Positions 9,343 through 53,894 of a DNA stretch of 64,000 nucleotides are shown here, piece after piece; the first letter of the stretch is position 1; each line of letters starts with the position of its first letter. The position numbers were made by a program, and so were the translations under genes. The notes beneath the pieces were generated by a model, which was given only the letters and a program-made list of their open reading frames with translations, had not been told where the DNA came from and did no database searches. Source of the DNA: Patescibacteria group bacterium (GTDB taxonomy: Bacteria; Patescibacteriota; Minisyncoccia; Phycocordibacterales; SIBU01); NCBI GenBank assembly GCA_040390045.1, contig JAZJZC010000002.1, positions 101,113 to 165,112 on the forward strand, written 5' to 3'.

Positions 9343-9351
9343 TGCTACAAT
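9343..9351 (+). promoter_or_regulatory. extended -10-like element TGcTACAAT upstream of the giant ORF
   Basis: tgctacaat lies 11 nt upstream of ATG 9362. No clear -35 or Shine-Dalgarno sequence is present. Confidence 0.35.
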
Positions 9352-9361
9352 ACTGAATAAT

Positions 9362-15300: not shown

Positions 15301-18145
15301 GAGTACCTTTACCGGCGCAACCTTTTCTGGAAATGTAGGAATTGGCACAACCACTCCTTCTGCCAAACTTACCATCGACAATCGTGGAAATGACACCAAT
15401 CCCTTTTCAATTACCACAAATGGATCAGTGGGAAACTACACGGCTACAAACACCGCGATGTTCATCCGAGATGCCGCGGGGACAGAGCTCATGAGAATAT
15501 TTGCGAGTGATTCAAATGGAGCACACTTTAACTCAGGTAACCTCTACATGGGGTATCAAGCAGGTGCGTCCAACCCAGTCGCTAACGTTTCAACATCCGG
15601 TTATTACAATACAGGTGTTGGATATCAAACGATGCTATCTAATACCAGTGGTGTCAGTAATACCGCTAATGGTTGGGGATCGCTTTTGAATAATACCAGC
15701 GGTTCATATAACGCAGGTTTCGGTATGTATTCTCTAGCTATAAATTTTACAGGTTCAAATAACGCCAGTCTTGGTGCATATTCTCAGGTGTACAACGGTT
15801 CAGCAACCAGTAGCACTGCTGTTGGGTATGCTGCTGGTTCTGGACTTGGAGGTGGATCACAATTTAACAACCAAGGTGGCACCTACGTCGGATACCAAAG
15901 TGGTTACAACCTAAGAACCAACTCGGACTACAACACCTTCCTCGGCTACCAATCAGGATATGGAGTAACCACAGGTAAAGATAATATTATTCTTGGTACT
16001 GCCACTTCTTCAACAGCCATCGCCAATCTCACTACCGGTTCACAAAACATTTTAATTGGAAGTAATATTTCCTTCCCATCTGCAACAGCCAGTGGTCAAC
16101 TTACTATTGGAAACATCATTTACGGAACGGGAAATACAGGAGCAGGATCAAATTTGTCGACGGGGAAGATTGGTATTGGTACTGCAAATCCTACCCAAAA
16201 ACTTGATATTGCTGGGAGTCTTGCAATACAAGGAGGAACAATTAATTTTGGTACTGGTTCTGCAACTTCAACTCTCACTTCAGTGAGCGGCAATCTTGGC
16301 ATCGGCACCACTACTCCCGGCGCAACCTTCGCGGTCACTGGTAGCGGTCTCTTCTCAACACAAGTGAGCACTCCAAATCTTTCTATCACCGGCATTACCA
16401 ACGGCGGAGCACAATGTTTGCAAATCAATGCACAAGGTTTGGTTTCTGGTACTGGTGGAGTCTGTGGAGGTGGGGGAAGCGGATCGGTTCCTGCGGGATC
16501 AGACGGAGCATTGCAGTTTAATAGTGGGGGAGTTTTCGGAGGAGGACATCTATTCTGGAACGACACAACAAATAATTTGACTACCGATTCAGGAGACTTC
16601 TTGCTGAATCCAACTGGAAATATTGGTATTGGTACTACGACAACAAATTCTACGTTCAAAGTGACTCTGCAAGGTTCACAAAATATTGTGGACGGTACGC
16701 TGTATCTACACTCTGGAGCGATACCAGGCGATAGTGCTACCGTCTCAGGGAGTGTTACATCAGCAGTGAGAGGTTTGCAACTGACTGGAGGAGGAGCTTT
16801 TGGTAGCAGTACCATAACCGCTTGGCACAATAGCGGTGGCGCGTTAGAAATCAATGGTAAGAGTACCGGTGTAGGAGCAACCACAGCTCAAATAACCCTA
16901 ATGCCGTCAACAAGTAGCTTTACTCCTTATCTATCTTTTAGCACAGGCGGTACTGCTTTTTCACTAACCGAAAGAATGAAAATTACTTCTACTGGCCGAA
17001 TTGGTATTGGTACCAGCACTCCCGGCTCTTTCTTCTCAATCCTGGATATCGCCAACTTCGCTACTTCTACCGGCGTTACTTTCTATAGAGGTCTCACCAC
17101 TCCCAACTTCATTGCAACCTCCTCTCTTGCTTCTGTCTTCCCATTCGCTTCCACTACCGCCATCACCTCAAGTGGTTCAGCATACTTTGCAACTCTCGGT
17201 GGTGCTGTCGGAATCGGCACAACTTCTCCTTCCTCGCTATTGTCTCTCACTCAACCCACCAACACCGAAGCCGGCGGCCTCTGGATCGCAGGCACCGACG
17301 GCGACTACCGCTCTATATATATATCTGACACCACAGGCGTTCTCTCCTTCGGAGGGGGAGACGCCGCCGGAGTCTACAACACCGCTACCCTCAATGACGC
17401 AGGAGCTTGGACTAATGCATCCGATAGAAAATACAAGGAAAACATTGCCGACTTAAACACCAAGTACACCCTCGATACCTTGATGAGCATCCAACCTCGC
17501 TTCTACACCATGAAAGGCACTGGAAAACCTCAGATTGGATTCATTGCTCAAGAACTTAAACTCGTTTTGCCTGAAGTCGTCGAAGGAGTAGATGGCTCCA
17601 TGGGAATCTCCTACGGAAACATGGTGGCACTGCTGGTAGAAGCCGTACAAGAATTAGCAAAAAAAGTCACGGGGTTTGCAAGTGAATTTACGACGAAGAA
17701 ACTTTGTGTGGATGACGTTTGTGTGACTCGCGACCAATTCAAAAAAATGATTGAAAATTCGGGAGCTACTTCAACAGGTTCAAGTGGTTCTGGAAGTGAG
17801 AGTGCCGCGCCCGCTGCGGGCGCGGCCTCCTCGACTCCTTCTACTGACATTACTCCACCAGTTATCACCTTGACCGGCGACAATCCAGCCACCATTTCTC
17901 TCGGTTCCTCATACATTGACCTTGGTGCAACTGTTACTGACAACGTTTCCCAAAACATCACAGCTGACCTTTTTGAAAATACTGTTGATACCACAACCGC
18001 GGGAACGTATTATGTAATTTATACGGCACATGATGCCGCGATGAACATTGCCACTTCGACGCGAAGTGTAGTTGTCAGTAATCCTGTTGTAACTCCCACC
18101 GCAACATCGACTGATCCCGTAGCAACCACCACGCCGACGGAATAA
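9362..18145 (+). CDS. giant secreted repeat fibre protein (beta-helix/tail-fibre-like) with C-terminal intramolecular chaperone autoproteolysis domain and terminal Ig-like domain
   Basis: Probable start MDFFYTEKRRFLRTILPLLIFSILFFPSPSNASG (signal peptide). About 2,900 aa of G/T/S-rich repeats (NVGIGTTSP; TATSTFAGG). The C-terminus has NASDRKYKENIADL...GFIAQELKLVLPEVV, resembling the S74 tail-fibre chaperone, then a PPVITLTGDNPATISLGSSYIDLGATVTDNV Ig-like segment. Confidence 0.75.
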   Translation: MDFFYTEKRRFLRTILPLLIFSILFFPSPSNASGPSVNTPSANAVLADTTPSVLSTVAQQVYTGVNSFFCSLGSLFGACGTTKTTTVVTPSLPTAPVGTPNSSASIGATPTIVNNYITQPVIHETTVSNTGGVTQGQLAAALNQLENKLSSKFFSIVGTPNSSSSIGAAPVNITQIIQNPPLPFATRIDKLENVILTTPTVSGGSFSNPTISGGSIVGTSISATTGSFSGDVTILGNLIAPSSVTTYGASIAPYFTATSSTATSTFAGGMNVAGDTGLTVLQNGKVGIGTAAPRFGLSLGSITNAGTDTPDTIDLGGTYSSTPGSNLKLRAYWDGAVQYGIGVSANQMEFVTTVGSQVWFNAGSEKMRLTQTGNLGIGTTTPAARLSLNQPSTTALGLYLAGFSNATVDLFRISTSTLTATSTAFVVNSNGKVGIGTTSPQATLGMTGSIGVNSSHLFLATNGNVGIGTTSPTQRLSLQGSALFSGDLNLANLTATGTISTPNLTVTGFVNGGAQCLQINASGVVSGTGGVCGGAGQSPAGVTGTMQYNNGGVFGGTANIFFDSTNSRLGIGTSTPGTLTELYASNTGTTLATLTEPSLSITNSATTVNNFESLLFRHITSTGAQQTMAQISGVNLVHTNAIDSGALAFLTRNAGTLSEKMRLTNAGLFGVGTSTPSSLVEVYGSNTGTLLTTFADPTLSITNPNTTVNNFSTLAFRHITSTGAETTMSQISGVNLVHTNAADSGALAFLTRNTGTLAEKMRITNQGLVGIGTTSPGLILTVSATSSLSNLGLFDVVAVPSAGATTTALRVISSGNVGIGTSSPYSKLSVAGEVVAQNFTATSTATSTFAGGVGIGTTSPQANLGIQGSIGVNASQLYLAATGNVGINTTNPGALFSVNGTASTSLLTISGITTATGQCLQINSLGVVSGTGAVCGGAGSVPAGSSGALQFNNAGVFGGGNLSWDNTNNILSTTAGTFSLNSFTGNVGIGTSTPYAALSIAGASGVVANIFTATSTTATSTFAGGVGIGTTSPSATLSISGDTYTSGNLSATNITASGTASSSALTVSGLATLQSLTISGIASTAQCLQINSLGVVSGTGTTCAGGSGSGSTTPQGVSGALQFNNGGVLGGANPLIWDNINNIFSLSDPTKLGIGTTSPQATIGMAGSIGVNSSQLVLASSGFVGIGTTTPSDFLHVFADNAHTRAIIQATGSFLAGVSLTTDTSQWTIDNRGTFDAPNDRFLITHQGVAVRMVIDNTGNVGFGTSSPYAKISIGSTATASTTLALRPIASQTGNILDIYNTSGALTSVMTASGKLGIGTSSPFATFAVNPIGGQASNQFVVGSSTATNFIITNGGLVGIGTTSPSQVLSVNGGGLFNGALSGVTSLAMNGNLSGVANLTTTGTVTFANINGSAQCLHVDSSGNLTGTGSDCGGAGSSPGSPVGGIQFNTGGVFTASTSLTFDNTTTGLLGIGTTTPTSSIEIYKTSSGTTLATFAEPTLSITNPNTTVNNFSTLAFRHITSTGAETTNSQISGVNLVHTNAADSGALAFLTRNAGTLAEKMRLTNAGLLGVGTSTPGSLIEVYASAAGTTLTTHADPTLSITNSNTTVNNFSTLAFRHITSTGAETTNSQISGINLIHTNAADSGIMAFLTRNAGTLAEKMRITNTGLVGIGTTTPFAQLSVNPNAIGSAAAFIIGSSTATNFVVTNGGNVGIGTAVPGSLLTVAGLTSTTNLTVSGITNGSGQCLQINSAGAVSGTGAVCGGSGSVPLGSTGALQYNNGGLFAGAATMIWDATNNRLGIGTSTPYTALGVAGTVVADNYIATSTTAPSVFTYASTTALTVTGVNSLFVSGVINSATSTAAGITTTDANTTSTFAGSLSVNGTASTSLLTISNISNGAGQCLQINATGQVTGTGAACGGSGSVPGGSTGAIQYNTGGVFTGGNLTWDNTLNALNTNTAILSLGGNALAGSFTATSTTATSTFTGATFSGNVGIGTTTPSAKLTIDNRGNDTNPFSITTNGSVGNYTATNTAMFIRDAAGTELMRIFASDSNGAHFNSGNLYMGYQAGASNPVANVSTSGYYNTGVGYQTMLSNTSGVSNTANGWGSLLNNTSGSYNAGFGMYSLAINFTGSNNASLGAYSQVYNGSATSSTAVGYAAGSGLGGGSQFNNQGGTYVGYQSGYNLRTNSDYNTFLGYQSGYGVTTGKDNIILGTATSSTAIANLTTGSQNILIGSNISFPSATASGQLTIGNIIYGTGNTGAGSNLSTGKIGIGTANPTQKLDIAGSLAIQGGTINFGTGSATSTLTSVSGNLGIGTTTPGATFAVTGSGLFSTQVSTPNLSITGITNGGAQCLQINAQGLVSGTGGVCGGGGSGSVPAGSDGALQFNSGGVFGGGHLFWNDTTNNLTTDSGDFLLNPTGNIGIGTTTTNSTFKVTLQGSQNIVDGTLYLHSGAIPGDSATVSGSVTSAVRGLQLTGGGAFGSSTITAWHNSGGALEINGKSTGVGATTAQITLMPSTSSFTPYLSFSTGGTAFSLTERMKITSTGRIGIGTSTPGSFFSILDIANFATSTGVTFYRGLTTPNFIATSSLASVFPFASTTAITSSGSAYFATLGGAVGIGTTSPSSLLSLTQPTNTEAGGLWIAGTDGDYRSIYISDTTGVLSFGGGDAAGVYNTATLNDAGAWTNASDRKYKENIADLNTKYTLDTLMSIQPRFYTMKGTGKPQIGFIAQELKLVLPEVVEGVDGSMGISYGNMVALLVEAVQELAKKVTGFASEFTTKKLCVDDVCVTRDQFKKMIENSGATSTGSSGSGSESAAPAAGAASSTPSTDITPPVITLTGDNPATISLGSSYIDLGATVTDNVSQNITADLFENTVDTTTAGTYYVIYTAHDAAMNIATSTRSVVVSNPVVTPTATSTDPVATTTPTE
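10900..16560 (+). repeat. intragenic protein-level repeat array (7x GxQCLQIN..VSGTG.VCGG modules; 4-5x ~100-aa LTEPSLSITN...EKMRLTNAGL units)
   Basis: Recurrent QCLQIN(A/S)xGxVSGTGxVCGG occurrences at about 10.91, 12.11, 12.62, 13.60, 14.59, 15.06 and 16.42 kb. Near-identical ~100-aa units at 11.08-11.70 kb and 13.78-14.40 kb. DNA copies have diverged at synonymous sites. Confidence 0.7.
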
Positions 18146-21744: not shown

Positions 21745-21862
21745 AATACGAAAATACGAAAAAGGTTACGAATATACGAACTTATACAAAAACTTTTTTG
21801 CAGTCACTACGGTTTTCGTACAATTTCGTATTTTCGTTAGTCCGCATTTCGTATCGAAGGAC
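21745..21862. repeat. R1 palindromic intergenic element (TACGAA-hexamer array / core / TTCGTA-hexamer array)
   Basis: Left half is caaTACGAAaaTACGAAaaaggtTACGAAtaTACGAA. Core is caaaaacttttttgcagtcactacggttttcgt. Right half is tttcgtattttcgttagtccgcatttcgtatcgaaggac. The last 37 nt are identical to the R1 copy at 35868-35903. Confidence 0.7.
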
Positions 21863-23395: not shown

Positions 23396-23546
23396 GATAC
23401 GAAAATACGAAATGAAAACGAAAATACGAAATCATACAAAAACTTTTCCGGTGCCATTACGGTTTTCGTTTATAATTTTGCTCACACGTTTAATAAATGC
23501 GTCAGTTTTCGTATAGTTTCGTATTTTCGTATAATAATTTCGTATC
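23396..23546. repeat. R1 palindromic intergenic element (copy 2)
   Basis: Left half gaTACGAAaaTACGAAatgaaaaCGAAaaTACGAAatcatacaaaaacttttccggtgccattacggttttcgtt. Right half 5x TTTCGTA. It fills the whole pilT-pilC spacer. Confidence 0.7.
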
Positions 23547-24752
23547 ATGTTATTTAATTACCAAGCACTCGACAATCAAAGCCAGACAGTCAAAGGTTCA
23601 ATTGATGCTATTTCAATTGATGTAGCGATCAGTTCTCTTCAGCATAGAGGATTTATTATTTCCTCGATTGCTCCTGCATCGGGCGGCACTGGTTTGAACA
23701 TGCAGATTAACTGGTTCAATCGTATCAAGACAAAAGATATTGTGCTTCTCTCAAGGCAACTTGCCACGCTTTTTCAAGCCCAGGTTTCTGCGTTAAGAAT
23801 TTTCCGGTTGATTTCGGCTGAGGCTGAAAATCCAACCCTTCAGTCTAAGCTTTTAGAAATTGCCGACGACTTGCAAGGCGGCAATTCTATTTCTAAATCG
23901 CTTTCAAAACACCCAGATGTTTTTTCTGATTTTTATGTCAACATGGTTCGTTCCGGTGAAGAGGCGGGGAAGCTCGATCAAACGTTCGAATATCTTGCTG
24001 ACTATCTTGAACGCTCGTATGAAATTCTTTCCAAGGCTCGTGGCGCCTTGATATACCCGGCGTTCGTAGTTGTGGTGTTTATTTCCGTGATGGTCTTGAT
24101 GCTCGTTCTTGTGATACCAAACTTAAGCGCCACCTTAATTGAGTCTGGACAGGAAATACCTGTGTACACGAAAGGTGTTATTGCTGTCAGCAATCTTTTT
24201 GTCCATTACGGTATTATTCTTTTAATTGTTGTAGTTGGGGGAGGCGTCGGTATTTGGAGGTGGGGGAAGACAAAAACTGGAGCTTTAGCCATTGACACTT
24301 TTAAATTAAAAGTTCCATACCTCGGCACTCTCTATAGCAAAATTTATTTAGCTCGTATTTCAGATAACCTAAACACATTGTTGCAGTCTGCTATACCAAT
24401 TGTTAAAACCTTGGAAATTACATCCTCTGTTATCGACAACGTAGTATATAAGGCGATTTTGAGTGACACGATTGAAGGGGTCAAGGCGGGGAACTCAATT
24501 TCAGATTCCATGGGACGACACCCAGAAATTCCAGGTATCATGATCCAGATGATGAAGGTGGGAGAAGAAACCGGTGAGCTCGGATCAATTCTCAAAACCT
24601 TATCTCGCTTTTATGCCCGTGAAGTTTCTAATGCAGTCGATGCACTTGTTAGTCTCATTGAGCCAGCCATGGTGGTAGGTCTTGGATTGGGCGTCGGATT
24701 CCTCTTTGCTGCCATCCTTATCCCGATTTACAACATCTCGGCGGCGCAATAA
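23547..24752 (+). CDS. pilC: type IV pilus inner-membrane platform protein PilC
   Basis: 401 aa with duplicated T2SSF domains. Downstream of pilT. Confidence 0.8.
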   Translation: MLFNYQALDNQSQTVKGSIDAISIDVAISSLQHRGFIISSIAPASGGTGLNMQINWFNRIKTKDIVLLSRQLATLFQAQVSALRIFRLISAEAENPTLQSKLLEIADDLQGGNSISKSLSKHPDVFSDFYVNMVRSGEEAGKLDQTFEYLADYLERSYEILSKARGALIYPAFVVVVFISVMVLMLVLVIPNLSATLIESGQEIPVYTKGVIAVSNLFVHYGIILLIVVVGGGVGIWRWGKTKTGALAIDTFKLKVPYLGTLYSKIYLARISDNLNTLLQSAIPIVKTLEITSSVIDNVVYKAILSDTIEGVKAGNSISDSMGRHPEIPGIMIQMMKVGEETGELGSILKTLSRFYAREVSNAVDALVSLIEPAMVVGLGLGVGFLFAAILIPIYNISAAQ

Positions 24753-24760
24753 ACACATAG

Positions 24761-25210
24761 CATGTAACACGTAACATGGAGCATGGAACAGAAGAGTCAA
24801 ATACGGAGAAAACATTCCACCAGAAGCTCCAGTTAAAAATTGATGAGTATGTCCACGGGGTGTATGCACTTAGTAAAAAATTCCCAAAGGAGGAAGCGTA
24901 TGGCATAACCTCTCAGCTAAGGCGAGCAAGTCTTTCTGTCCCGCTTAATTACATTGAGGGGTATGCGCGACAGAGGGATAAGGTCTACAAAAATTTTCTT
25001 GAAATTTCCTACGGTTCCCTGAAAGAATCCTTATATCTGATTAAGTTTTCTTATGACGAAAATCTAATTTCTAAAGAACAATATGAAAAATATATTAGTC
25101 TAGGAGATGAAATAGGCGCAATGATATGGTCAATTTTGCGCAAAATCTAGTCTTCTGGCCTCTTTATCCCCCCTTGTTGCATGCTACGTGCTCCATGTTC
25201 CATGATTCAG
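24761..25210. mobile_element. R2-family palindromic element carrying a four-helix-bundle gene
   Basis: Left end catgtaacacgtaacatggagcatggaacag (24761-24791). Right end atgctacgtgctccatgttccatgattcag (25181-25210) contains the reverse complement of the same acatggagca / catggaaca motifs. Confidence 0.5.
24776..25150 (+). CDS. four-helix-bundle protein (TIGR02436-like, the '23S rRNA intervening-sequence protein' family)
   Basis: KKFPKEEAYGITSQLRRASLSVPLNYIEGYARQ matches the family's conserved core. The N-terminal MEHGTEESN residues are partly encoded by the repeat end. Confidence 0.6.
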   Translation: MEHGTEESNTEKTFHQKLQLKIDEYVHGVYALSKKFPKEEAYGITSQLRRASLSVPLNYIEGYARQRDKVYKNFLEISYGSLKESLYLIKFSYDENLISKEQYEKYISLGDEIGAMIWSILRKI

Positions 25211-27205: not shown

Positions 27206-28069
27206 ATGGAAATTCTAACAACATTCCTCTTTTTTATTTTCGGCACCATTGTCGGAAGTTTTTTAAATGTTGTCATTCTCCGCTTTAACACTGGTGGGAC
27301 GCTCGGAGGGAGATCCCATTGTTTTACGTGTGGCAAAGACATCGCGTGGTACGACCTCGTGCCGTTGTGGAGTTTTTTATTTTTAGGCGGCACATGTCGT
27401 TTTTGCAAAAGTAAAATTTCATTTCAGTATCCCTTAGTTGAATTTCTAGCTGGTTTAATTTTTGCCATATCTTTCTGCCAATTTTCTCCTCAAGTTTCCT
27501 TGCTCGGCCTCTACCATACTACCGACTATCTACTATTCTCTATCTCTCTCATCATCTACTCTCTCTTGATTGTTATTGCCGTATATGATTTCCGTCACCA
27601 AATTATTCCCGACCTGTTAGTTTTTTTGTTCGCGATTTTTGCCTTGCTCAAATTATTTTTAATGAACGATGTGTCTGCGTTGTTTATGTTTCCCGGACTA
27701 CTCAATCTTTTAGCCGGACCACTGTTAGCCTTGCCGCTATTTCTCCTGTGGTTAGTTTCTCGTGGCAGATGGATTGGGCTTGGCGATGCCAAACTGATGC
27801 TCGGCGTTGGTTGGTTTTTAGGTTTCACTCTTGGCGCCTCGGCAATGATTATCGGTTTTTGGATAGGAGCTCTTGTTTCTGTCTTACTTCTCGGTCTCGG
27901 GAAACTTATGAAAGCCAGTTTCGGGCAATTTCTGGGTTTGAGTTTCAGCCTGAAAAATCTTACAATTAAGAGCGAAGTTCCTCTGGCGCCGTTTCTCATC
28001 CTCGGATTCTTTATAGCGGCCTTTTTCAAAATTGATGTTTTGGGATTGAGTTCAATGTTTTCTATATGA
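27206..28069 (+). CDS. pilD: prepilin peptidase PilD (A24 family)
   Basis: N-terminal tetracysteine CFTCGKDIAWYDLVPLW...CRFCKSKI, polytopic membrane topology. 287 aa. Confidence 0.8.
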   Translation: MEILTTFLFFIFGTIVGSFLNVVILRFNTGGTLGGRSHCFTCGKDIAWYDLVPLWSFLFLGGTCRFCKSKISFQYPLVEFLAGLIFAISFCQFSPQVSLLGLYHTTDYLLFSISLIIYSLLIVIAVYDFRHQIIPDLLVFLFAIFALLKLFLMNDVSALFMFPGLLNLLAGPLLALPLFLLWLVSRGRWIGLGDAKLMLGVGWFLGFTLGASAMIIGFWIGALVSVLLLGLGKLMKASFGQFLGLSFSLKNLTIKSEVPLAPFLILGFFIAAFFKIDVLGLSSMFSI

Positions 28070-28079
28070 ATTAAGAATT

Positions 28080-28763
28080 ATGAATTATGAATTAAGAAAA
28101 CAAAAAGATAAGTCGCGGAAGTGCTTTCCCAGGTTTTTCCATAATTCCTACTTCCTGATTCCTAATTCGCCTAAAAAGGGTTTTTCCCTGATTGAGCTTA
28201 TGGTCTCAATTGCCATTTTTACGCTTTTGACAAGCATTGTGATGGTAAGCCAGCAGAAATTTGGTGGTCAGATTTTGATTACCAATCTCGCGTATGATAT
28301 CGCGCTCGGTATTCGCGAAGCTCAGGTGTATGGTATCAGTGTTAAAACTACGACAGGTGGGAAGTTTGATAAAAGTTACGGTATTCATTTTAAAGATCCT
28401 AATTATTATGTTTTGTTTGTGGATAGTAGCCCGGCGAATGGAAAATATGATGGGCCAGATAGTGGCAGTGCCTGTATGGCAGGCGGGGAGTGTCTTAGTT
28501 TTTTTAGAATAGAAAAAGGGAATGCGATTACTCGACTATGTGCCGATAACGAATGTACTGACTCTGGGGCTGGCAATCAAATTTCTGGACTTGACCTTTT
28601 ATTCACAAGACCTGAACCCGATCCAATGATCCATCCGTTGGATAACGCGGGCGCTCAAATGCTCGGTGCGTTTTCCACAGCTCAAGTGACGGTCGCCTCA
28701 CCGCAGGGTCTCACACGAACTATTAATATTTTAAAGAGCGGTCAAGTGTCGGTAGTTAATTAA
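28080..28763 (+). CDS. minor pilin / pseudopilin
   Basis: KKGFSLIELMVSIAIFTLL prepilin motif. It follows an unusually long (about 30-aa) leader, so the start is uncertain. Confidence 0.6.
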   Translation: MNYELRKQKDKSRKCFPRFFHNSYFLIPNSPKKGFSLIELMVSIAIFTLLTSIVMVSQQKFGGQILITNLAYDIALGIREAQVYGISVKTTTGGKFDKSYGIHFKDPNYYVLFVDSSPANGKYDGPDSGSACMAGGECLSFFRIEKGNAITRLCADNECTDSGAGNQISGLDLLFTRPEPDPMIHPLDNAGAQMLGAFSTAQVTVASPQGLTRTINILKSGQVSVVN

Positions 28764-29954: not shown

Positions 29955-29958
29955 AAAA

Positions 29959-30067
29959 CACGGAACATGGAGCACAGAACACAGAACAGAAAAAAAGAAG
30001 GAAAGAGCCGCGCGCTTTGCGCGCGGCCTTTTCCCCATGCTGCATGCTCCATGATTCATGCTCCATG
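29959..30067. repeat. R2 palindromic element (no cargo) enclosing a terminator hairpin
   Basis: cacggaacatggagcacagaacacagaacag ... gccgcgcgctttgcgcgcggc ... catgctgcatgctccatgattcatgctccatg. Confidence 0.65.
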
Positions 30068-30497
30068 CCAAAAGGGTTTCGCCCTCTTGTTCGCCGTGCT
30101 CGCCTCAAGCGTTTTTCTCTCAATCGGTATCGCCATCTGGAATATTTCTTTGCGCCAGGTTCTTTTTTCTTCTTTCGGTCGGGAATCACAAGTGGCTTTT
30201 TACGCCGCTGATGCTGGCATTGAGTGTGCACTGTTTTATGACACTAAACATGATTATTTTAATCCCGATGATCCTGCTACTGTAATGAATTGTGGTGGAG
30301 GAGATGTGATGATTGATCCAGATGCCAATCCCGTTTTTACCATATCGGATATTAGGCTCACGGATTCTGATACAGGTCCCTGTGTCGATGTGACAGTTAC
30401 GAAAGATCTCATCACCACGGTGGAAGCTCGAGGGCATAATACTTGCGACACTTTAAGTCCGACACGAGTAGAGCGCGGGTTGAGAGTAACCTACTAA
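30051..30497 (+). CDS. pilin-like protein lacking Glu5 (GspK/PilX-type minor pilin candidate)
   Basis: MIHAPCQKG|FALLFAVLASSVFLSIGIAIW. The first ATG of the listed ORF (29967, MEHRTQN...) lies inside the R2 repeat and is probably not used. Confidence 0.45.
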   Translation: MIHAPCQKGFALLFAVLASSVFLSIGIAIWNISLRQVLFSSFGRESQVAFYAADAGIECALFYDTKHDYFNPDDPATVMNCGGGDVMIDPDANPVFTISDIRLTDSDTGPCVDVTVTKDLITTVEARGHNTCDTLSPTRVERGLRVTY

Positions 30498-35771: not shown

Positions 35772-35774
35772 TAT

Positions 35775-35903
35775 TTCAATACGAAAATACGAATTATATA
35801 TACGAACATACGAAATAATACGAAAACTATTCTGGTGTTACTGAAATTTTCGTATCGTTTCGTATTTTCGTTAGTCCGCATTTCGTATCGAAGGACGAGA
35901 CCA
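35775..35903. repeat. R1 palindromic intergenic element (copy 3)
   Basis: caaTACGAAaaTACGAAttatatatacgaacatacgaaataatacgaaaac ... ttttcgtatcgtttcgtattttcgttagtccgcatttcgtatcgaaggac. The 3' 37 nt are identical to copy 1. Confidence 0.7.
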
Positions 35904-36641: not shown

Positions 36642-36665
36642 CTTTACATTTAGAATCTTAAGAAA

Positions 36666-36708
36666 AAACCCATCCGATTCGCCGCGGCGAATCGGATGGG
36701 TTTTTTTC
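36666..36708 (+). terminator. rho-independent terminator (aacccatccgattcgccgcggcgaatcggatgggtt + T7)
   Basis: 16-bp stem followed by tttttttc. Confidence 0.75.
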
Positions 36709-38135: not shown

Positions 38136-38175
38136 GATAGATTTAAGATTCACGATTCAAGATTTAAGAATGGGA
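38133..38175. repeat. R3 motif (atagatttaagattcacgattcaagatttaagaat)
   Basis: An almost identical 40-nt motif recurs at 45376-45421 after pheS. Confidence 0.5.
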
Positions 38176-38185
38176 AAAGAAAAAA

Positions 38186-38862: not shown

Positions 38863-38960
38863 TATACGAAAGGGGTACGAAAATACGAAAAAATACGAAA
38901 GCTTTTTTGGTACCATCACGGTTTTCGTATAGTTTCGTATTTTCGTAATTTACTTTCGTA
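38863..38960. repeat. R1 palindromic intergenic element (copy 4)
   Basis: ctaTACGAAaggggTACGAAaaTACGAAaaaaTACGAAagcttttttggtaccatcacggttttcgtatagtttcgtattttcgtaatttactttcgta. It runs right up to the prfA ATG. Confidence 0.7.
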
Positions 38961-38961
38961 T

Positions 38962-39921
38962 ATGGATTTAGAACCCTATAAAAAAAATCAAAAGACTAGC
39001 TATCTGGCAGAACGGTATGAAGCTCTCGTTAAGGAAGAACAAGAGCTTTTAAAAATGGCTGAAAAAGACCCTGGGTTAAAAGAATTGACCGAAGAAGAAC
39101 TTTCGGCTATTCGTGCTGAACAAAAAATTCTGGCCGATCAAATGCAGAAAAATCTGGCTGAAGATGAGGTCGAGGAGGAATTTCCAAGAGAAGCCATTCT
39201 TGAAGTTCGAGCTGGGGCTGGTGGGGAGGAAGCCGCACTTTTTGCCGAAGAGCTTGCCATCATGTACAAAAAGTACGCCGAGACCGTTGGTTGGTCTTGG
39301 AAAACGGTTTCTCAATCGGAAAGTTCTCTTGGTGGTTACAAAGAAGCCACATTTGAAATTTCTGGAGATGATGTGTATAAAAAATTACGTTTTGAAACCG
39401 GAGTTCATCGAATTCAGCGGGTTCCAGCTACGGAAAAAATTGGCCGCGTGCATACCTCAACCGCTTCGGTGGCGGTTCTCCCAATTCGTAAAAAAGTTTC
39501 ATTTGAGATCAACCCGGTTGATTTGGAAATGGAATTTTCGCGTTCAGGTGGAGCCGGCGGACAAAATGTTAACAAGGTGGAAACAGCAGTGCGCCTCATT
39601 CACAAGCCTACCGGACTTGATGTGCGTTCAACGTCCGAAAGAAGTCAGGTGAAAAACCGAGAAAAGGCTTTGGCGATTTTGTCGGCCAAAATTTTGGCGC
39701 TGAAAGAGGAGGAGGAAGCCAAAAAATACGCCGGTGTGCGTAAAAATCAAATCGGTACCGGCGATCGTTCCGAAAAAATCAGAACCTACAACGTTTTACA
39801 GGATCGCGTAACCGATCACCGAATTAAAGAATCATGGCACAATATTGCCGGAATTTTCGAGGGAAATATTGGTGCGATTATCGAAGCTCTTTCCGCAGAG
39901 GCAGAAAAAAACTCAAATTAA
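38962..39921 (+). CDS. prfA: peptide chain release factor 1
   Basis: Start [25 protein letters not shown] (PxT tripeptide) and GGQ motif ([11 protein letters not shown]). The longer listed ORF from 38650 reads through rpmE and the R1 repeat and is rejected. Confidence 0.85.
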
Positions 39922-40048: not shown

Positions 40049-40780
40049 ATGACAACGTCAAAAACCCAATCACATAGCACCGAAACTATCGATTCAATGT
40101 TTAAGGCCGGAGCCCACTACGCTTTTTCTCGTTCTCGACGACACCCAACTTTGGCACCATTTATTTTCGGTGTTAAGAATCATGTTGAAATTTTCGACTT
40201 GGAAAAGACCAATGAACTCCTTGAAAAGGCCAAAGATTTTGTAAGAACACTCGCAACCGAAGGCAAGCAGATTTTGCTCGTCGGCGGTAAAAGTGAGGCC
40301 CGCGATGCTATCAAGCGAGCGGCAGCTGAACTCGACATGCCATACGTTGTTGACCGCTGGCTCGGAGGTACACTCTCAAACTTTAAAGAAATTCGATCCC
40401 GCGTCGAGAAGCTTCTTGATTTGACCGCTAAACGCGAGAAAGGAGAACTTTCCAAATATACAAAAAAAGAACGACTTTTGATTGATCGCGAAATCGAGAA
40501 GCTCGAGCGATTTTTCTCAGGTCTTGTCCCAATGAAAGAATTGCCAAAAGCTCTTTTTGTCATTGACTCAAAACACGAACACATCGCAGTGACCGAAGCC
40601 AGAAAAGCTGGTATTCCTGTAATCGCTCTTATGGGTTCGGACTGCAATATTAAAACTGTTGATTATGCTATTCCAGGAAACGACGCTTCAATCGCTAGTG
40701 TGGCCTTTTTTGTGGATCAGATCGTGTGGGCATACAAGGAGGGTAGAAATGAAAAGCTAAAGAAGGCACAAAACGCGTAA
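40049..40780 (+). CDS. rpsB: ribosomal protein S2
   Basis: MTTSKTQSHSTETIDSMFKAGAHYAFSRSRRHPTLAPFIFG...IDSKHEHIAVTEARKAGIPVIAL. Confidence 0.85.
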   Translation: MTTSKTQSHSTETIDSMFKAGAHYAFSRSRRHPTLAPFIFGVKNHVEIFDLEKTNELLEKAKDFVRTLATEGKQILLVGGKSEARDAIKRAAAELDMPYVVDRWLGGTLSNFKEIRSRVEKLLDLTAKREKGELSKYTKKERLLIDREIEKLERFFSGLVPMKELPKALFVIDSKHEHIAVTEARKAGIPVIALMGSDCNIKTVDYAIPGNDASIASVAFFVDQIVWAYKEGRNEKLKKAQNA

Positions 40781-40848
40781 CACGTAGCATGGAGCATAAG
40801 ACAGGGACACTATGTTCCATGTTGTGTGCTCCATGTTCCATGAACACC
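40774..40848. repeat. R2 palindromic element between rpsB and tsf
   Basis: cgcgtaacacgtagcatggagcataagacagggacactatgttccatgttgtgtgctccatgttccatgaacacc. It overlaps the rpsB stop and supplies the false MEHKTGTL... extension on tsf. Confidence 0.65.
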
Positions 40849-41454: not shown

Positions 41455-41854
41455 GTATATTCTCGATCTCAGTGTGATAATTGTTTCTACGATCGGGGGT
41501 CTGTCTCTTTTTTTGGTTAAGTTTTTTGAAATAAAATCTGGCCAGCCGGGGGTTTTGACTCGCGTAAGCCTTTTTGCTGATCCAACATTTTCGGCATTTG
41601 GCAGTAAGCTCAGAAGGTTTTGGTTGGAGTTGGAAAATTTTCCGTTCAGAAAAGTGCTACACCAGTTTATTCAGGGAGTTTTCCATCTTTTCGGAGTCAC
41701 GGGTTTGTTTATTGCGAAGTACCACAAGCAGTTTATAAACAGTAAGAGACAGATCAATGAAAAAGGGGTAGTTTCCTTTTTTCTTAAAGATGTGGCAGAA
41801 TCGAGAGAGAGTAAGACAGATCACGGAACACAGAACACAGATCATAAAATGTAA
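41455..41854 (+). CDS. hypothetical small membrane protein (uncertain)
   Basis: MYILDLSVIIVSTIGGLSLFLVKFF... in an ORF that ends inside an R2 repeat. The start is ambiguous; the listed ORF overlaps the tsf end. Confidence 0.25.
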
Positions 41855-41899
41855 GAGAGAAAAATGTTTCGTGGTCCGTGTTCTGTGGTCTGTAACGTG
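41822..41899. repeat. R2 palindromic element abutting tRNA-Thr
   Basis: cacggaacacagaacacag ... gtggtccgtgttctgtggtctgtaacgtg. It ends 7 nt before the tRNA. Confidence 0.6.
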
Positions 41900-43096: not shown

Positions 43097-44338
43097 TTAT
43101 CTCCAACTTGTATTTTTAGATAAAACTACGAGATAAATAGCTTTTGATAGCCATGCGATAGAAAAAATGCCGTATACCAAAGGAAAATATAAAGTATGAA
43201 AAGAGAAATGGTTGTTTTTAGTATCTGAGATTTGTTTACCGAGCGTGACGAGAAGGATGGTTGAGAGGAAGAGTAGTAGCCCCAGAAACATTTTTGAATC
43301 AGTATTGATGAAAAACCAATCAAAATGAAAGCCGTTCCAGACCCAATTAAAACCAATGGTTTTAATTTCTGTATATTTATCAGCAACCATTCTCAGGATA
43401 TTTATTGATACCATGCCAACGGAGACCATGAAAAGCACGATACCAACGACCGACATCGGAAGCATAAAAAGTCCCAAGTGTTTGTGTTTTGGATTGAAAA
43501 ACATCGAACGATAATCGATTGAGTTGGCAAGAAAACCGCTCACCCAGCGAACTCGTTGGCGGTAGAGTTTAGCGAAAGACCCTGGTCCAACCGTGTAGAC
43601 GACAGCGTCGTGCGCGTTGCCGATACGATAACCATTTTTCTGCATGCGCATAGCAATCTCCAAGTCTTCGGTATTGTGAGCTTCGTGGAATAATCCAAGA
43701 TTATCAAAAACTGTTTTTCGAAAAATAGAAAAGGGCCCGGGAGTCACGGTGATTGCATCGAGCATGCTGAAAGATTTTTTCATAAAAATACCCAGGTTGT
43801 ATTCGTTGCTTTGAACATGGCGGATCATTCGGTCAGGCTCGAAAATTTTAATGGCCGGTGTTACTGCCATGATTTTTTGATTTTCAAAATGGGGAATAAT
43901 TTTCGTCAGCGTATCTGGTGGGACAAATGAATCGGCGTCGAGACATCCGACAAGCTCGGTTTCCGTTTTACGGATGGCGGCATTAAGCGCGGTATATTTC
44001 CCTCCATTTTTTTTATTGATGACCTCGATCCGTTTGTTCCATCGGAAAGTTTTCAATACACCGGCTGTGTCATCGGTTGAACCGTCATTAACTGCAATAA
44101 TTTTCAATTTGTCTTTCGGGTAGTCTAATTTTAACAGTGAGTAGATTGTTTTACTGATGGTTTTTTCTTCGTTGAATGCAGGCACAATGATAGTAACTGA
44201 TGGAAGAATCGACGATAACTTGATTTTCTCACCGCCTTTTTCAGTGCGGTTTTCCAAAAAGCTGATCAGCAAAAAAACTTCAAAGTACAATGACGTGAAA
44301 AAAGAAATATAGAGAATGATGTTAGAAATTTGACTCAT
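43097..44338 (-). CDS. family-2 glycosyltransferase (processive, QxxRW type; polytopic membrane)
   Basis: Start MSQISNIILY. IIVPAFNEE ... NDGSTDDT ... LDADSF ... QRVRWVSG motifs, with C-terminal TM helices. Confidence 0.7.
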   Translation of the reverse strand: MSQISNIILYISFFTSLYFEVFLLISFLENRTEKGGEKIKLSSILPSVTIIVPAFNEEKTISKTIYSLLKLDYPKDKLKIIAVNDGSTDDTAGVLKTFRWNKRIEVINKKNGGKYTALNAAIRKTETELVGCLDADSFVPPDTLTKIIPHFENQKIMAVTPAIKIFEPDRMIRHVQSNEYNLGIFMKKSFSMLDAITVTPGPFSIFRKTVFDNLGLFHEAHNTEDLEIAMRMQKNGYRIGNAHDAVVYTVGPGSFAKLYRQRVRWVSGFLANSIDYRSMFFNPKHKHLGLFMLPMSVVGIVLFMVSVGMVSINILRMVADKYTEIKTIGFNWVWNGFHFDWFFINTDSKMFLGLLLFLSTILLVTLGKQISDTKNNHFSFHTLYFPLVYGIFSIAWLSKAIYLVVLSKNTSWR

Positions 44339-44469
44339 TGTAAGGGTTTGGCCCCTGTGTTTTCCTAGTCTACTGCATCGCAAGCTCTAACTCAAGGTAG
44401 GTAGGGCGCTTTCGCACACGCTATGCATGGGTTGCGCTTGGGTTGTGTGGTTTCAAAATTAGACTCAAA

Positions 44470-44511
44470 AGCAACACACTAATTCATTGCTATAGCAATG
44501 AATTAGTGTGT
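44470..44511. promoter_or_regulatory. perfect 19-bp-arm palindrome (aacacactaattcattgc tat agcaatgaattagtgtgtt) upstream of pheS
   Basis: Seen directly in the sequence. It lies between divergent-orientation genes and may be a bidirectional terminator or an operator. Confidence 0.4.
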
Positions 44512-44573
44512 TTGAAGTTTTCAAGGATTCTTAATGTTTGGGCGTATTTCTCCTTTTTCTTCTTTACTATATA

Positions 44574-45380
44574 ATGACTGCTATGCAGGACAAGGAACAG
44601 GTTGCACAAGGACATATTCACCCGATTTCACGGGCGATTTTTGATATTCGAACAATCTTTGCCGAACTGGGTTTTGCTGTTGCGGTGGGACCTGAAATGG
44701 AGGATGAGTGGCACAATTTTGACGCGCTTAATATTCCTAAAGATCATCCGGCACGCGATATGCAGGACACCTTCTGGCTCAAGAATGCGGAACAGACGCA
44801 GAACAACGCAGAACGAACGCCGAAGAATACCCACGAAAATTTTCCGCATCAGTCCGCGTCCATTCCGCGCAGTTCTGCACTTCTGCGTACTCATACAAGT
44901 CCGGTACAAATAAGATATATGGAAAAAAAACTCGAAGCTGGCATACAGCCGCCATATCGAATTATCGTGCCAGGAAAAGTTTTTAGAAATGAAGCCACGG
45001 ACGCTACTCACGAAGCGCAATTTTTTCAGGTTGAGGGGTTGTATGTTGATAAAAATGTTTCTATGGCTCACTTGAAAGGTGTTCTTGAGTTTTTCTTTAA
45101 AAAGTTTTTCGGCAACGATGTAGTCATTCGATTTCGTCCAAGTTTTTTTGCGTTCACCGAGCCGTCGGTGGAAGTTGATATGAAATTTAAGGGCAAATGG
45201 CTTGAAATGATGGGAGCAGGGCTCGTGCATCCAAACGTTTTAAAGGCCGCAGGCGTGCCGGAAGGCTTTAGTGGGTTTGCTTTCGGCGGAGGCATTGATC
45301 GAATGGTGATGGTGAAGTACGGCATCACCGATATTCGATTACTGTATTCCGGAGATTTGCGCTTAGTTAATCAGTTCTAA
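44574..45380 (+). CDS. pheS: phenylalanine-tRNA ligase alpha subunit (short form) with in-frame repeat insertion
   Basis: Start MTAMQDKEQ immediately after tataat (leaderless?). Class II motifs FRNEATDATHEAQFFQVEG and GFAFGGGIDRMVMVKYGI. About 30 extra residues between DTFWL and LLRTHTSPVQ. Confidence 0.85.
   Translation: MTAMQDKEQVAQGHIHPISRAIFDIRTIFAELGFAVAVGPEMEDEWHNFDALNIPKDHPARDMQDTFWLKNAEQTQNNAERTPKNTHENFPHQSASIPRSSALLRTHTSPVQIRYMEKKLEAGIQPPYRIIVPGKVFRNEATDATHEAQFFQVEGLYVDKNVSMAHLKGVLEFFFKKFFGNDVVIRFRPSFFAFTEPSVEVDMKFKGKWLEMMGAGLVHPNVLKAAGVPEGFSGFAFGGGIDRMVMVKYGITDIRLLYSGDLRLVNQF
44786..44882 (+). repeat. R2-like palindromic insertion inside the pheS reading frame
   Basis: tgcggaacagacgcagaacaacgcagaacgaacg ... 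cgcatcagtccgcgtccattccgcgcagttctgca. It encodes NAEQTQNNAERTPKNTHENFPHQSASIPRSSA without breaking the frame. Confidence 0.55.
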
Positions 45381-45421
45381 AATAGATTTAAGATTTAGGA
45401 TTAAAGATTTAAGAATAAGAA
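45376..45421. repeat. R3 motif copy (atagatttaagatttaggattaaagatttaagaataag)
   Basis: Near-identical to 38133-38175. Sits in the pheS-pheT spacer. Confidence 0.5.
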
Positions 45422-45427
45422 AAAATA

Positions 45428-47302
45428 ATGCTTATATCCTACAACTGGCTACAATCATATTTTGACGAAACACTTCCTGAACCGGAAAAGCTAGGGGAAC
45501 TTTTGACGTTCGCCTCTTTTGAGTTGGAAGGAATTGAAAAAAAGGGCAGTGACACAATTCTTGATTTAAAAGTTTTACCTGACCGCGCTTGTTATGCACT
45601 TTCGCATCGCGGAATGGGATACGAAGTTGCAGCCATTACCGGCTTGGCTAAGAAAAAACAGGAACAGATTTTACCGCCAGTAGGAAAAACTCGACCATTC
45701 AATGTGCGCGTGGAAGACTCTGATTTGTGTGCGCGATATATGGCCCGAGTAATTGAAAATGTTACCCAAAGAGAATTGCCGGTGGTGAAAGAGAGATTGC
45801 AGAGTGTTGGCCAGCGCTCGATCAACCCAGTTGTTGATAGTGCCAATTTTGTGATGCTTGATCGAGGTCAACCGCTCCATGCGTTTGACGCGGATAAAGT
45901 GAAGGGGGATATTGTAGTGCGTAGAGCAAAAACAGGGGAAAAAATAATTACACTTGATAATCGCGAGGTCGACTTGGATGAAACTATTTTGATTATTGCA
46001 GATGAAGAAGCGCCACTTGCGATCGCGGGAATTAAGGGTGGGAAAAGAGCTGAGGTTACGTCGAGCACAAAAAATTTAATTCTCGAGTCGGCCAGTTTCA
46101 ATGCGTCATATATTCGTAAAACCTCGGACAAGCTCGGCATTAGAACTGACGCATCAAAGCGATACGAAAATAAATTTTCAGCGGATATGACGAGTAAAGG
46201 AATGAATGATTTTAGCGCGCTCTTGTTTGAAATGGATTCACAAATTTTGGCCGGTGAAGTAATCGATATCTATTCCAATGTTCTGCAGAACATTGGAATA
46301 GATATAACAGCAGAGTATATTTCAAATAGGTTAGGGTTGGATTTACCAGAAGAGGTAATTGTCGATGTTCTCAGATGTCTAAAAATTGAAGTTAAAAAAA
46401 GAGGGAAGGAGTTAATACTCACGCCACCAATCTTTCGCGCTGACCTCTTGATTCCCGAGGACATTGCAGAAGAGGTGGGAAGAATTGTCGGGTACGATAA
46501 AGTTCCGGCCACTCTTCCACCTGTCCTCAAAATGGAACTAGAAATTCCAAAGCAGTTTTACTATGAATGGAAAATTCGTGAGATTTTGGCGAACGCTGGT
46601 TTTTCGGAGGTGATGACGTCATCATTTTCATCGAGTGGGGAAATTGCGATTGAGAAACCGCTGGCAGAAGATAAAAAATTCACTCGGCCAAATTTACGAA
46701 ACAACTTTGCAATGGCGCTCAAACTCAATTTCGGCAACGCTTCACTTTTTGGTTCTGAAGAAATAAAAATTTTTGAAATAGGAAAAGTTTTTGGAAGAGG
46801 TGGCGAGCATGCCGCACTTGCTGTAGGATTTGCGGGACCAAAAAAGAAAGTCGCTTCTGAACTTTCTGCTGTCGTCGCGCTTCTTTCAGAAAAACTTGGA
46901 TGCAACCTAGAAGGGGAAACCAAAGACGGCATTTTTGAAACTAATTTGGATAAAGCCCTGAGCGATCTGCCACAGCCAAAAAGTTCGGACGTCCTAACTT
47001 TTCCTCTTTGTGACGCCATGTTTAAGCCATTTTCTGTCTATCCTTTTATTGTTCGCGATATTGCGCTCTTTGTTCCAGCCGGCACAGATTCTGAAACTAT
47101 CCACCAATTAATTTTAGGAGACGCCGGAGATTTTGTGGTTCACTCGAAACTATTCGACCGATTTGAGAAAGATGGAAAAGTTTCCTACGGCTTTCGTTTA
47201 GTGTTTCAATCTATGGGGCGGACGTTGACCGATGAAGAAATAAATAAAGTTATGGAAAAAGTGTACGAAACATTAAAAGCTAAGGGTTGGGAAATTAGAT
47301 AA
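45428..47302 (+). CDS. pheT: phenylalanine-tRNA ligase beta subunit (short form)
   Basis: MLISYNWLQSYFDETLPEPEKL N-terminus and B3/4 domain. 624 aa (bacterial PheT is usually about 800). Confidence 0.85.
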   Translation: MLISYNWLQSYFDETLPEPEKLGELLTFASFELEGIEKKGSDTILDLKVLPDRACYALSHRGMGYEVAAITGLAKKKQEQILPPVGKTRPFNVRVEDSDLCARYMARVIENVTQRELPVVKERLQSVGQRSINPVVDSANFVMLDRGQPLHAFDADKVKGDIVVRRAKTGEKIITLDNREVDLDETILIIADEEAPLAIAGIKGGKRAEVTSSTKNLILESASFNASYIRKTSDKLGIRTDASKRYENKFSADMTSKGMNDFSALLFEMDSQILAGEVIDIYSNVLQNIGIDITAEYISNRLGLDLPEEVIVDVLRCLKIEVKKRGKELILTPPIFRADLLIPEDIAEEVGRIVGYDKVPATLPPVLKMELEIPKQFYYEWKIREILANAGFSEVMTSSFSSSGEIAIEKPLAEDKKFTRPNLRNNFAMALKLNFGNASLFGSEEIKIFEIGKVFGRGGEHAALAVGFAGPKKKVASELSAVVALLSEKLGCNLEGETKDGIFETNLDKALSDLPQPKSSDVLTFPLCDAMFKPFSVYPFIVRDIALFVPAGTDSETIHQLILGDAGDFVVHSKLFDRFEKDGKVSYGFRLVFQSMGRTLTDEEINKVMEKVYETLKAKGWEIR

Positions 47303-47314
47303 TTTTTTCACTAT

Positions 47315-47654
47315 GTCATCCTCGCGAATGCGGGGACCCAGGTATGATGTATTACGTTTACATTTTAGCTAGTCAACGGAACGGCACTTTGTATATTGGA
47401 ATTACTTCAGATTTACAAAAGAGAATTTATCAGCATAAAACAAATGCAGTTTAAGGATTTACTCAAAAATATGCTGTTCATACTTTGGTTTACTATGAAT
47501 ATACCGAGAATGTTGAAGCAGCAATTGCACGAGAGAAACAACTCAAAAAATGGAATCGCAAGTGGAAATTGGATTTAATTGAAAAAGATAATCCGCAATG
47601 GAGAGATTTGCAGGGGATGTTATGAGTCTGGATCCCCGCATTCGCGAGGATGAC
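47315..47654. mobile_element. GIY-YIG nuclease cassette bracketed by 27-bp terminal inverted repeats
   Basis: Left gtcatcctcgcgaatgcggggacccag (47315-47341). Right ctggatccccgcattcgcgaggatgac (47628-47654), whose reverse complement matches the left at 26 of 27 positions. Confidence 0.6.
47344..47625 (+). pseudogene. GIY-YIG (UPF0213/YhbQ-like) nuclease gene with a single in-frame TAA at 47452-47454
   Basis: MMYYVYILASQRNGTLYIGITSDLQKRIYQHKTNAV*GFTQKYAVHTLVYYEYTENVEAAIAREKQLKKWNRKWKLDLIEKDNPQWRDLQGML. Homologues have a sense codon (K/S) at the stop position. Confidence 0.6.
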
Positions 47655-47735
47655 AGAGGGTTGTTTAGAAATGGCAATTTTGTAATTATAAAAAATAAAA
47701 GAAAAATTTGTACGATATATCGTACAAATAAAAAC

Positions 47736-53812: not shown

Positions 53813-53861
53813 TATGGTTGCATAGGATAATTTAGAACACGCGAAATGTTTGTGTTTTAAA

Positions 53862-53894
53862 AATTGCGCAACAGCTGTTGCGCAATTTTTTGCT
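53862..53894. terminator. perfect palindrome aaaattgcgcaacagctgttgcgcaatttt (bidirectional terminator)
   Basis: 14-bp arms with A/T tracts on both sides. Confidence 0.6.

Follow-up and report, generated by a model that had tools for sequence, protein, structure and literature searches.

In the 64,000-nt stretch of DNA from a Patescibacteria group bacterium that was analysed here (hereafter the window), the gene pheS, which encodes the alpha subunit of phenylalanine-tRNA ligase, carries a hairpin-forming insert of about 27-29 codons that is in frame and lies in the linker between motif 1 and motif 2 of the protein. The explanation that we favour, tentatively and with somewhat less than even confidence, is that this insert is an old, vertically shared and translated coding hairpin that arose by template switching and slippage and is now decaying. 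The insertion itself, its reading frame, its homology to hairpins at the same site in related genomes, the lack of other copies in the window and the complementarity of such inserts to their own flanks were all observed, and it is from these observations that the argument proceeds.

The gene is a single intact open reading frame (ORF) in the ORF list, on the + strand like all the parts of it described below, from 44574 or 44583 to 45380, and the deposited protein (P0001) starts at 44583. A pheS pseudogene is ruled out, as the ORF is intact. The product is 100% identical to a protein from a metagenome-assembled genome at NCBI (Patescibacteria group bacterium) that is annotated phenylalanine--tRNA ligase subunit alpha, belongs to PF01409, and matches PheS structures in the PDB at E 1e-74; it is a short form in which the N-terminal coiled coil is absent. 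Downstream of pheS lies pheT (45428-47302). The linker is bounded upstream by the conserved D-M-Q-D-T-F-W codons (44757-44777) and downstream by the LLRTHTS codons (44880-44900), and between them are 34 codons or 102 nt (44778-44879, LKNAEQTQNNAERTPKNTHENFPHQSASIPRSSA), within which 44784-44879 encodes the low-complexity peptide NAEQTQNNAERTPKNTHENFPHQSASIPRSSA. In the closest relative (locus L170, protein P0004), whose PheS is 88% identical in the protein alignment, the linker has only 8 residues, LKPREAGA, and this represents the empty site. When the two genes were compared codon by codon, with the empty site reading CTC AAG followed by CCG CGC, the inserted block proper was found to be 81 nt, that is 27 codons, at 44784-44864. 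The initial annotation had described an in-frame block of ~97 nt at 44786-44882 that adds ~32 low-complexity residues to PheS; the sequence is as it was quoted, and the extra residues, the retained frame and the status of an insertion relative to most PheS proteins were all confirmed, but 97 is not a multiple of 3 and the true linker is 102 nt.

When the product was aligned with E. coli PheS (3PCO) the alignment came in two pieces, query residues 9-70 with chain residues 100-161 and query residues 101-268 with chain residues 163-326, and ~30 query residues at the linker face about one E. coli residue. It had been stated that the flanking segments are universally adjacent, and this is not the case: T. 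thermophilus PheS has ~17 residues at this position, and the eukaryotic/archaeal-type alpha chains among the matches (e.g. 3L4G) are ~11 residues longer than the query across the linker region. The position accommodates from 1 to about 40 residues in the solved structures of phenylalanyl-tRNA synthetase (PheRS). In an AlphaFold2 model (42 homologues) all of residues 66-106 were of low confidence, the predicted local distance difference test score being below 50 at residues 66-71 and 80-106 and the means of 10-residue blocks across 66-106 being 39-53; confidence was low at the neighbouring motif-1 residues also. Such low confidence would fit a flexible loop, but it proves little.

The insert is built from words of 10-11 nt, those on its left side being ACGCAGAAC and those on its right side TCCGCGT/TTCTGC. 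The left arm (44787-44826) consists of the tandem words GCGGAACAG, ACGCAGAACA, ACGCAGAACGA and ACGCCGAAG, as seen from Tandem Repeats Finder (period 11, 3.3 copies, 44790-44824), from direct repeat D1 and from a word alignment that matches them to four words in each of 9 other genomes. A central segment that is mostly unpaired according to the arms and the fold (ATACCCACGAAAATT, 44827-44841) separates it from the right arm (44842-44879), in which Tandem Repeats Finder (period 11, 2.7 copies, 44842-44869) and inverted repeats I1/I2 show the complementary words TTCCGCATCAG, TCCGCGTCCA, TTCCGCGCAG and TTCTGCA. The outermost stem is formed with the conserved L-L-R-T codons (CTTCTGCGTACT, 44880-44891; inverted repeats I4/I5 and the fold), which hold TTCTGCGT at 44881-44888, and this is the exact complement of the word ACGCAGAA found at 44796 and again at 44806. 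As an inverted repeat the block has two arms of 26 nt, at 44798-44823 and 44853-44878, which are 77% complementary and separated by a 29-nt gap, so that the inverted symmetry that was claimed initially exists although it is imperfect. Folded as RNA, 44780-44890 has a free energy of -30.3 kcal/mol (z -2.8), and 2 of 200 dinucleotide shuffles did as well. When the 100-nt windows of the 64 kb were ranked by stability, the hairpin was not in the top 45. The hairpin signal is real yet modest.

In relatives the same linker is a site of recurrent and variable insertion. DNA was obtained for close relatives, fetched singly, for 80 GTDB species-representative loci, which were too distant to help and mostly had short linkers, and for 80 metagenome loci (loci are given L numbers below). 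Linker length in the 120 nearest PheS clusters was 5-41 residues, with at least 18 residues in 74 clusters and at most 11 in 43, and the long linkers (18-41 residues) were of several mutually unrelated low-complexity types, all of them in frame. All 172 pheS linkers examined (5-42 residues) were in frame and had no stops, which strongly implies that they are translated. The possibility that some of the loci that gave no match had a frame-shifted or interrupted pheS was rejected, since all of these were motif variants with in-frame linkers. Inserts of the window type, with peptides like NAExTQxNAE...QRxSASxQRxSA, were found at the same site in at least 10 other pheS genes and aligned locally to the window insert with z 5.6-22.6, while other linker types scored at the null level. 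In these relatives the hairpin is much better preserved, with z down to -7.8 in L088 and -9.0 in L134, and therefore the copy in the window is a degenerate member of an old, site-specific family. The initial annotation had set an insertion against a lineage-specific loop common to all relatives and free of any nucleotide palindrome, and to this the relatives give a mixed answer: homologous segments are present in some of them, which makes the insert old and lineage-specific and not recent, these segments are themselves palindromes, and the closest relatives, with 85-88% identical PheS, do not have them. Some other relatives carry unrelated linker sequences, and some are without a second hairpin.

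The insert is conserved as nucleotide sequence and not as peptide. Between the window and L081 the inserts are 83% identical whereas the flanking third codon positions are 42% identical, and this similarity spans a 1-nt shift, so that the homologous stretch is read as NNAERT in one genome and as KSRTD in the other. In an alignment of 10 genomes the core of the words, GCnGA on the left and TCnGC on the right, was invariant although the homologous words are read in different frames. RNAalifold found a common hairpin of 24 pairs, 6 of which had double-sided changes, with a covariation term of about zero (+0.53). Over the 10 hairpins the stem pairs were 96% Watson-Crick and only 4% G-U, as would be expected if the copying took place at the level of DNA. 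Such conservation in excess of that of neutral DNA requires either selection or continuing re-templating.

An indication of where such sequences come from was found in the upstream part of the linkers of relatives. Many of them have there a hairpin, H1, to which the D-M-Q-D-T-F-W codons contribute the 5' arm. This arm comprises the conserved (D)TFW codons together with Leu/Ile/Val codons, and the 3' arm matches it as an exact reverse complement, for example GGACACTTTTTGGGTC-aaa-GACCCAAAAAGTGTCC; the window copy is without H1. Of the 38 distinct loci whose linkers have 20 residues or more, 17 start the linker with a perfect H1 stem of 8-16 bp, while none of the 86 loci with short linkers (11 residues or fewer) does so and the rate at control positions is 0.5%. 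Inserts matched the reverse complement of their own upstream flank over 8.24 nt compared to 5.86 nt for the flanks of other genomes (p=1.4e-6), and they follow their own host's synonymous differences upstream (TTC/TTT, GAC/GAT), a correspondence that a foreign element could not have brought with it. It is the H1 stems of relatives that clearly show inserted sequence to be the reverse complement of the flank. For the copy in the window the putative link to its own flank consists of the 8-nt word ACGCAGAA, present twice, against TTCTGCGT, together with an association with the LLR codons, in which TTCTGCG occurs in 4 of 10 loci with a window-type insert and in 5 of 154 others (p=8e-4); this codon choice is present already at the empty site of L170.

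An event of the same general kind may have taken place in the neighbouring gene. A perfect, loop-less palindrome of 40 nt (ATATCTATTCCAATGTTCTG/CAGAACATTGGAATAGATAT, 46266-46305, + strand), which is not part of the insert, lies in pheT and encodes DIYSNVLQNIGIDI, and in comparison with relatives the same spot is of the same length (e.g. VDIYPHPVEGKKLTV) but has no palindrome. A recent template switch within this essential gene seems the likely source, as a palindrome without a change in length is the expected product of one such event (PMC8794818). At the corresponding pheT spot L090 has a tandem KLQVRKLQVRK array. Loop-less perfect palindromes also occur between genes of the window, at 44473-44512 (40 nt, just upstream of pheS and between divergent genes), 36663-36706 (44 nt) and 53859-53890 (32 nt), and their number in the 64 kb is far above the chance expectation.

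When copies of the insert were looked for elsewhere in the window, which is about a third of the contig, exact and 3-mismatch searches with the arms recovered only the insert itself, and blastn-short of the insert against the rest of the window gave a best score of 23.8 bits compared to a null mean of 22.8, which is no significant similarity. Membership in a multi-copy dispersed family, as expected of the Rickettsia palindromic elements (RPE), was thus not seen within the 64 kb. Local alignment of the insert with each of the intergenic palindrome families of the window gave z of at most 2.8, and this came from one 10-nt word, ACGCAGAACA against ACACAGAACA. The word period is also different, 10-11 nt in the insert and 7-8 nt in the intergenic hairpins, which are built from the words AACACAG/CCATGCT, ATACGAAA and AGATTYA. 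No target-site duplication and no terminal inverted repeats were visible when the insert was compared with the empty site of L170. CTTCTG does occur on both sides of the insert, but it is not a target-site duplication because the upstream copy belongs to the T-F-W codons and stops some bases before the junction is reached, and because L170 has the downstream copy only. The multiple copies and the related autonomous element expected of a miniature inverted-repeat transposable element (MITE) were not found in the window, where the search for transposases was limited to two Pfam scans. Rfam over 44300-45500 did not match the insert, and sub-threshold microRNA models matched only the intergenic palindrome at 44473-44512. 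These results do not bear out the initial annotation in which the insert was an 'R2-like' mobile palindrome. No second unit was found in the flanks of the other carriers of this insert type (~4-21 kb each, less than 100 kb in total), and a protein-database search for other host genes with canonical insert peptides gave 4 candidates, none of them significant, and was uninformative. Across ~2.1 Mb of related loci, clusters of the insert words were confined to the pheS linker except in one genome, L108.

In L108 the pheS linker is short, and in-frame arrays of ACGCRGAC words are present in pheT (TQTDADATRTNAD) and in thrS (GNAELRGTDADKRG), at 9074-9113 and 16425-16464, respectively; these are the only ACGCRGAC arrays outside pheS in the 2.1 Mb, and both are in synthetase genes. 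Other types of linker array also recur outside pheS. The (AATTTCC)n array of the L101 pheS linker is found again, in frame, in a glycosyltransferase gene (3212-3241), the AAACTTC word of the L109 linker is found again in frame in an ORF of 503 residues (9776-9812), and L093 has in a spacer without an open frame an array similar to that of its own pheS linker. In-frame word arrays were found in pheT of L029 (5885-5914) and of L090 as well. Local origin alone does not explain everything, and templating at ectopic sites, a family of mobile repeats or selection that acts on the words may be involved. An in-frame word array was noted also in L018, in a probable CCA-adding enzyme as judged from motifs in the translation (13535-13563), and the arrays in L101, L109, L018 and L029 are of heptamer or octamer words. 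In the window itself heptamer arrays (GAATTAA, AGATTCA, AGATTTA) occur in short intercistronic spacers at 28065-28098, 38137-38183 and 45382-45428, the last being the pheS-pheT spacer, and in other genomes the pheS linker itself is made of similar heptamer arrays.

The mechanism that we favour can now be stated. The insert would have been built in place by replication errors, in which template switching or fold-back copying placed reverse-complement copies of neighbouring codons in the linker, and slippage would then have multiplied words of 10-11 nt, giving on the left an array of ACGCAGAAC-like words and on the right, complementary to it, an array of TCCGCGT/TTCTGCG-like words, the latter resembling the native L-L-R codons CTTCTGCG. 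Versions that were in frame, free of stops and coded for hydrophilic residues would have been the ones to survive, the segment being translated as a flexible and harmless surface loop with which PheRS stays functional. The insert would be common by descent to a set of Patescibacteria/Paceibacteria pheS genes, lost or replaced in others, and in the genome of the window its pairing would have eroded to 77%. Template switching has been documented to create and to maintain hairpins (PMC8794818). Several results weigh against this account. The copy in the window lacks H1, and its own flank link is confined to the 8-nt word and the codon-usage association; across insert types, complementarity to the downstream flank was not significant. 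Words of the same kind occur in pheT and thrS of L108, and the pheS arrays of L101, L109 and L093 recur elsewhere in those genomes. The insert is conserved beyond neutral DNA (83% against 42%) with an invariant core in 10 genomes. Lastly, simple vertical descent is not established because insert types are scattered on the neighbour-joining tree of PheS, which is poorly resolved and cannot separate descent with losses from repeated gain.

This scatter and the recurrence of words outside pheS are what would be expected if the insert were instead a mobile or dispersed palindromic repeat of the RPE, MITE or REP (repetitive extragenic palindrome) kind that entered an ancestor in frame at a permissive, perhaps preferred, site and is now inactive or absent here, an explanation that we consider unlikely although by no means negligible. 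The in-frame arrays in L108 pheT and thrS, next to a short pheS linker, and the arrays in the L101 glycosyltransferase, the L109 ORF and the L093 spacer would fit it, the insertion of repeats in frame has a precedent in RPE (PMC10969869), and the window does have genuine dispersed hairpin repeats, with 39 nt identical between 21824-21862 and 35858-35896, and a PF05635 gene that is bracketed by inverted arrays of a family common to three gene-less hairpins. However, neither the 64-kb window nor the flanks fetched for other carriers gave a second copy, the insert is not like the repeat families of the window and has a different word period, comparison with the empty site gave neither a target-site duplication nor terminal repeats, and H1 stems of up to 16 bp that match the host's synonymous codons cannot arrive with an element. 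A rather improbable explanation, in our estimate, is that the hairpin, whatever its origin, is a selected cis-acting nucleic-acid element in the pheS message or DNA and the peptide is a by-product, and this would overlap with either origin; its role could be ribosome pausing, protein binding or modulation of mRNA stability, possibly common to aminoacyl-tRNA synthetase genes. The conservation at the nucleotide level between the window and L081, the homologous words in different frames, the invariant core with double-sided changes in 6 of 24 consensus pairs, the strong hairpins in L088 and L134, and the finding that word arrays outside pheS were confined to two other synthetase genes all speak for it. 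But the insert is absent from the closest relatives, other relatives have unrelated sequences, some without a second hairpin, and the copy in the window is degenerate; in addition, G-U pairs are rare, RNAalifold covariation is about zero, no Rfam family matches, and re-templating by template switching can mimic selection (PMC8794818).

That the insert is an ordinary lineage-specific loop under selection for its peptide, with the palindromy incidental, is very improbable. Other lineages do have idiosyncratic loops here, as in T. thermophilus and in the longer eukaryotic and archaeal chains, but the peptide is of low complexity and low AlphaFold2 confidence, the length varies from 5 to 41 residues among close relatives with unrelated sequences, the versions in relatives are strong nucleotide hairpins, and the reading of homologous DNA in different frames in different genomes largely refutes it. 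It is also conceivable, but we think it quite unlikely, that Paceibacteria have an undescribed repeat system, in which arrays of 7-11-nt words, particular to each genome and often paired in inverted orientation, would populate spacers, some of them bracketing PF05635 or GIY-YIG genes, as well as surface loops of essential genes; the PheS linker would be a hotspot started by fold-back copying of the T-F-W codons, and the ACGCRGAC/GTCYGCGT hairpin and the arrays in L108 pheT and thrS would be kept as a cis-element in synthetase genes. Three other candidates were set aside. An intein remnant does not fit 34 low-complexity residues, which are too short, no scan for intein motifs having been made; neither adenine-specific variability nor a template repeat, as for the target of a diversity-generating retroelement, was noticed, no dedicated test having been made; and a chimera of assembly or amplification is rejected as the same proteins occur on independent contigs from several sources.

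The surroundings of pheS hold further repeats. A family of intergenic hairpins made of ATACGAAA words occurs at 21745-21862, 23397-23533, 35772-35896 and 38864-38971, and as 21824-21862 and 35858-35896 share 39 identical nt that are not part of the arrays (TTTCGTATTTTCGTTAGTCCGCATTTCGTATCGAAGGAC), these hairpins are truly copied repeats and not products of independent slippage. A gene for a PF05635 '23S rRNA intervening sequence protein' (24776-25150; E 1.5e-27, with a weaker bAvd match) lies within an element at 24752-25207 and has inverted arrays of CATGGAGCA/AACACG words on either side. Hairpins of this word family that hold no gene were found at 29957-30068, 40772-40842 and 41813-41893, and they could be solo hairpins of the element that carries the gene. 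The arms of this element are unrelated in sequence to the pheS insert, between whose arms there is no ORF as there would be in a PF05635 intervening sequence. PF05635 genes with inverted repeats on their flanks lie between pheS and pheT in L065 and L073, but only 3 PF05635 genes were found in the 2.1 Mb, which is too few to relate them to the pheS words. Just 3' of pheT, at 47311-47658, inverted repeats of 31 nt (94% complementary) bracket a gene for a GIY-YIG nuclease that is interrupted by a stop and whose read-through translation matches PF01541 (E 9.5e-18). Farther away, at 9293-18145, is a giant ORF of 2950 residues that is rich in diverged internal repeats, among them a GGCATCGGCAC (G-I-G-T) motif that recurs. 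The GC content around it is raised (up to 0.54) and the GC skew is reversed. In L085 (5477-8911), gyrB of the same gene neighbourhood contains another in-frame invader, an intein (PF14890 match, 1144-residue product).

If the local templating that we favour is true, an essential enzyme can gain 20-40 new codons time and again through template switching and slippage in replication, and can retain them, and the dozens of natural replicates at one site would make a natural system for the study of de novo loop gain. If instead the mobile or the cis-acting explanation is true, there would be an undescribed class of repeats or a regulatory hairpin in a very large and poorly understood bacterial radiation. 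For annotation it is a warning that low-complexity 'inserts' in housekeeping proteins of Patescibacteria may reflect the dynamics of hairpins at the level of DNA and not protein function.

Of the known systems, RPE are like the pheS insert in that a hairpin repeat of ~100 nt is translated in frame in a housekeeping gene where the protein fold permits it (PMC10969869), and in that some genomes, at least, have related words in several genes. They differ in having units of ~150 bp and defined multi-copy families, each with a conserved peptide (PMC10969869), whereas the pheS insert consists of arrayed words of 10-11 nt, occurs once in the window and is found at one orthologous site in many lineages, and inserts at this site in related genomes often open with an inverted copy of the host gene's codons. 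The RPE analogy of the initial annotation is apt as regards the outcome, in which an essential enzyme has acquired a probable surface loop from a repeat, while a common mechanism is conjectural. The hairpins attributed to template switching (Monttinen and Loytynoja 2022, PMC8794818; coding examples from yeast, PMC8604942) are alike in that perfect stems result when neighbouring sequence is copied as its reverse complement, that the two arms change together with no G-U intermediates, and that the pairing can be maintained without selection. Those studies concern RNA genes and short multi-nucleotide changes, while in pheS there is an expansion of 20-40 codons in an essential protein gene, to which tandem amplification of words and recurrence at one hotspot in many lineages are added. 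The coding palindromes of Nematomorpha mitochondria (PMC6649704) share inverted repeats in coding sequence with both arms translated, but they are reported to be perfect, numerous and up to 284 bp long, and they are mitochondrial, whereas the palindrome of pheS is short, word-based and imperfect and lies in a loop of a bacterial synthetase. MITEs, REPs and bacterial interspersed mosaic elements (BIME) resemble the insert as small hairpin repeats, and the window does have dispersed intergenic hairpin families, but the pheS block has no terminal inverted repeats, target-site duplication or multiple copies. REPs are extragenic by definition, and the insert is inside the coding sequence of pheS, unlike REP/BIME. 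Insertions in the PheRS alpha subunit of other lineages, in T. thermophilus and in the eukaryotic/archaeal enzymes, lie at the same position between the DTFW strand and LLRTHTS, but those segments are stable and lineage-wide, while the pheS insert is of low complexity, hypervariable among close relatives and palindromic as DNA. A literature search, which was not exhaustive, found no description of such a coding hairpin in Patescibacteria. In-frame palindromic repeats, coding palindromes and template-switch hairpins are known already, and what sets the present case apart is the word-array form, the stems derived from the flank and the hotspot at a single site.

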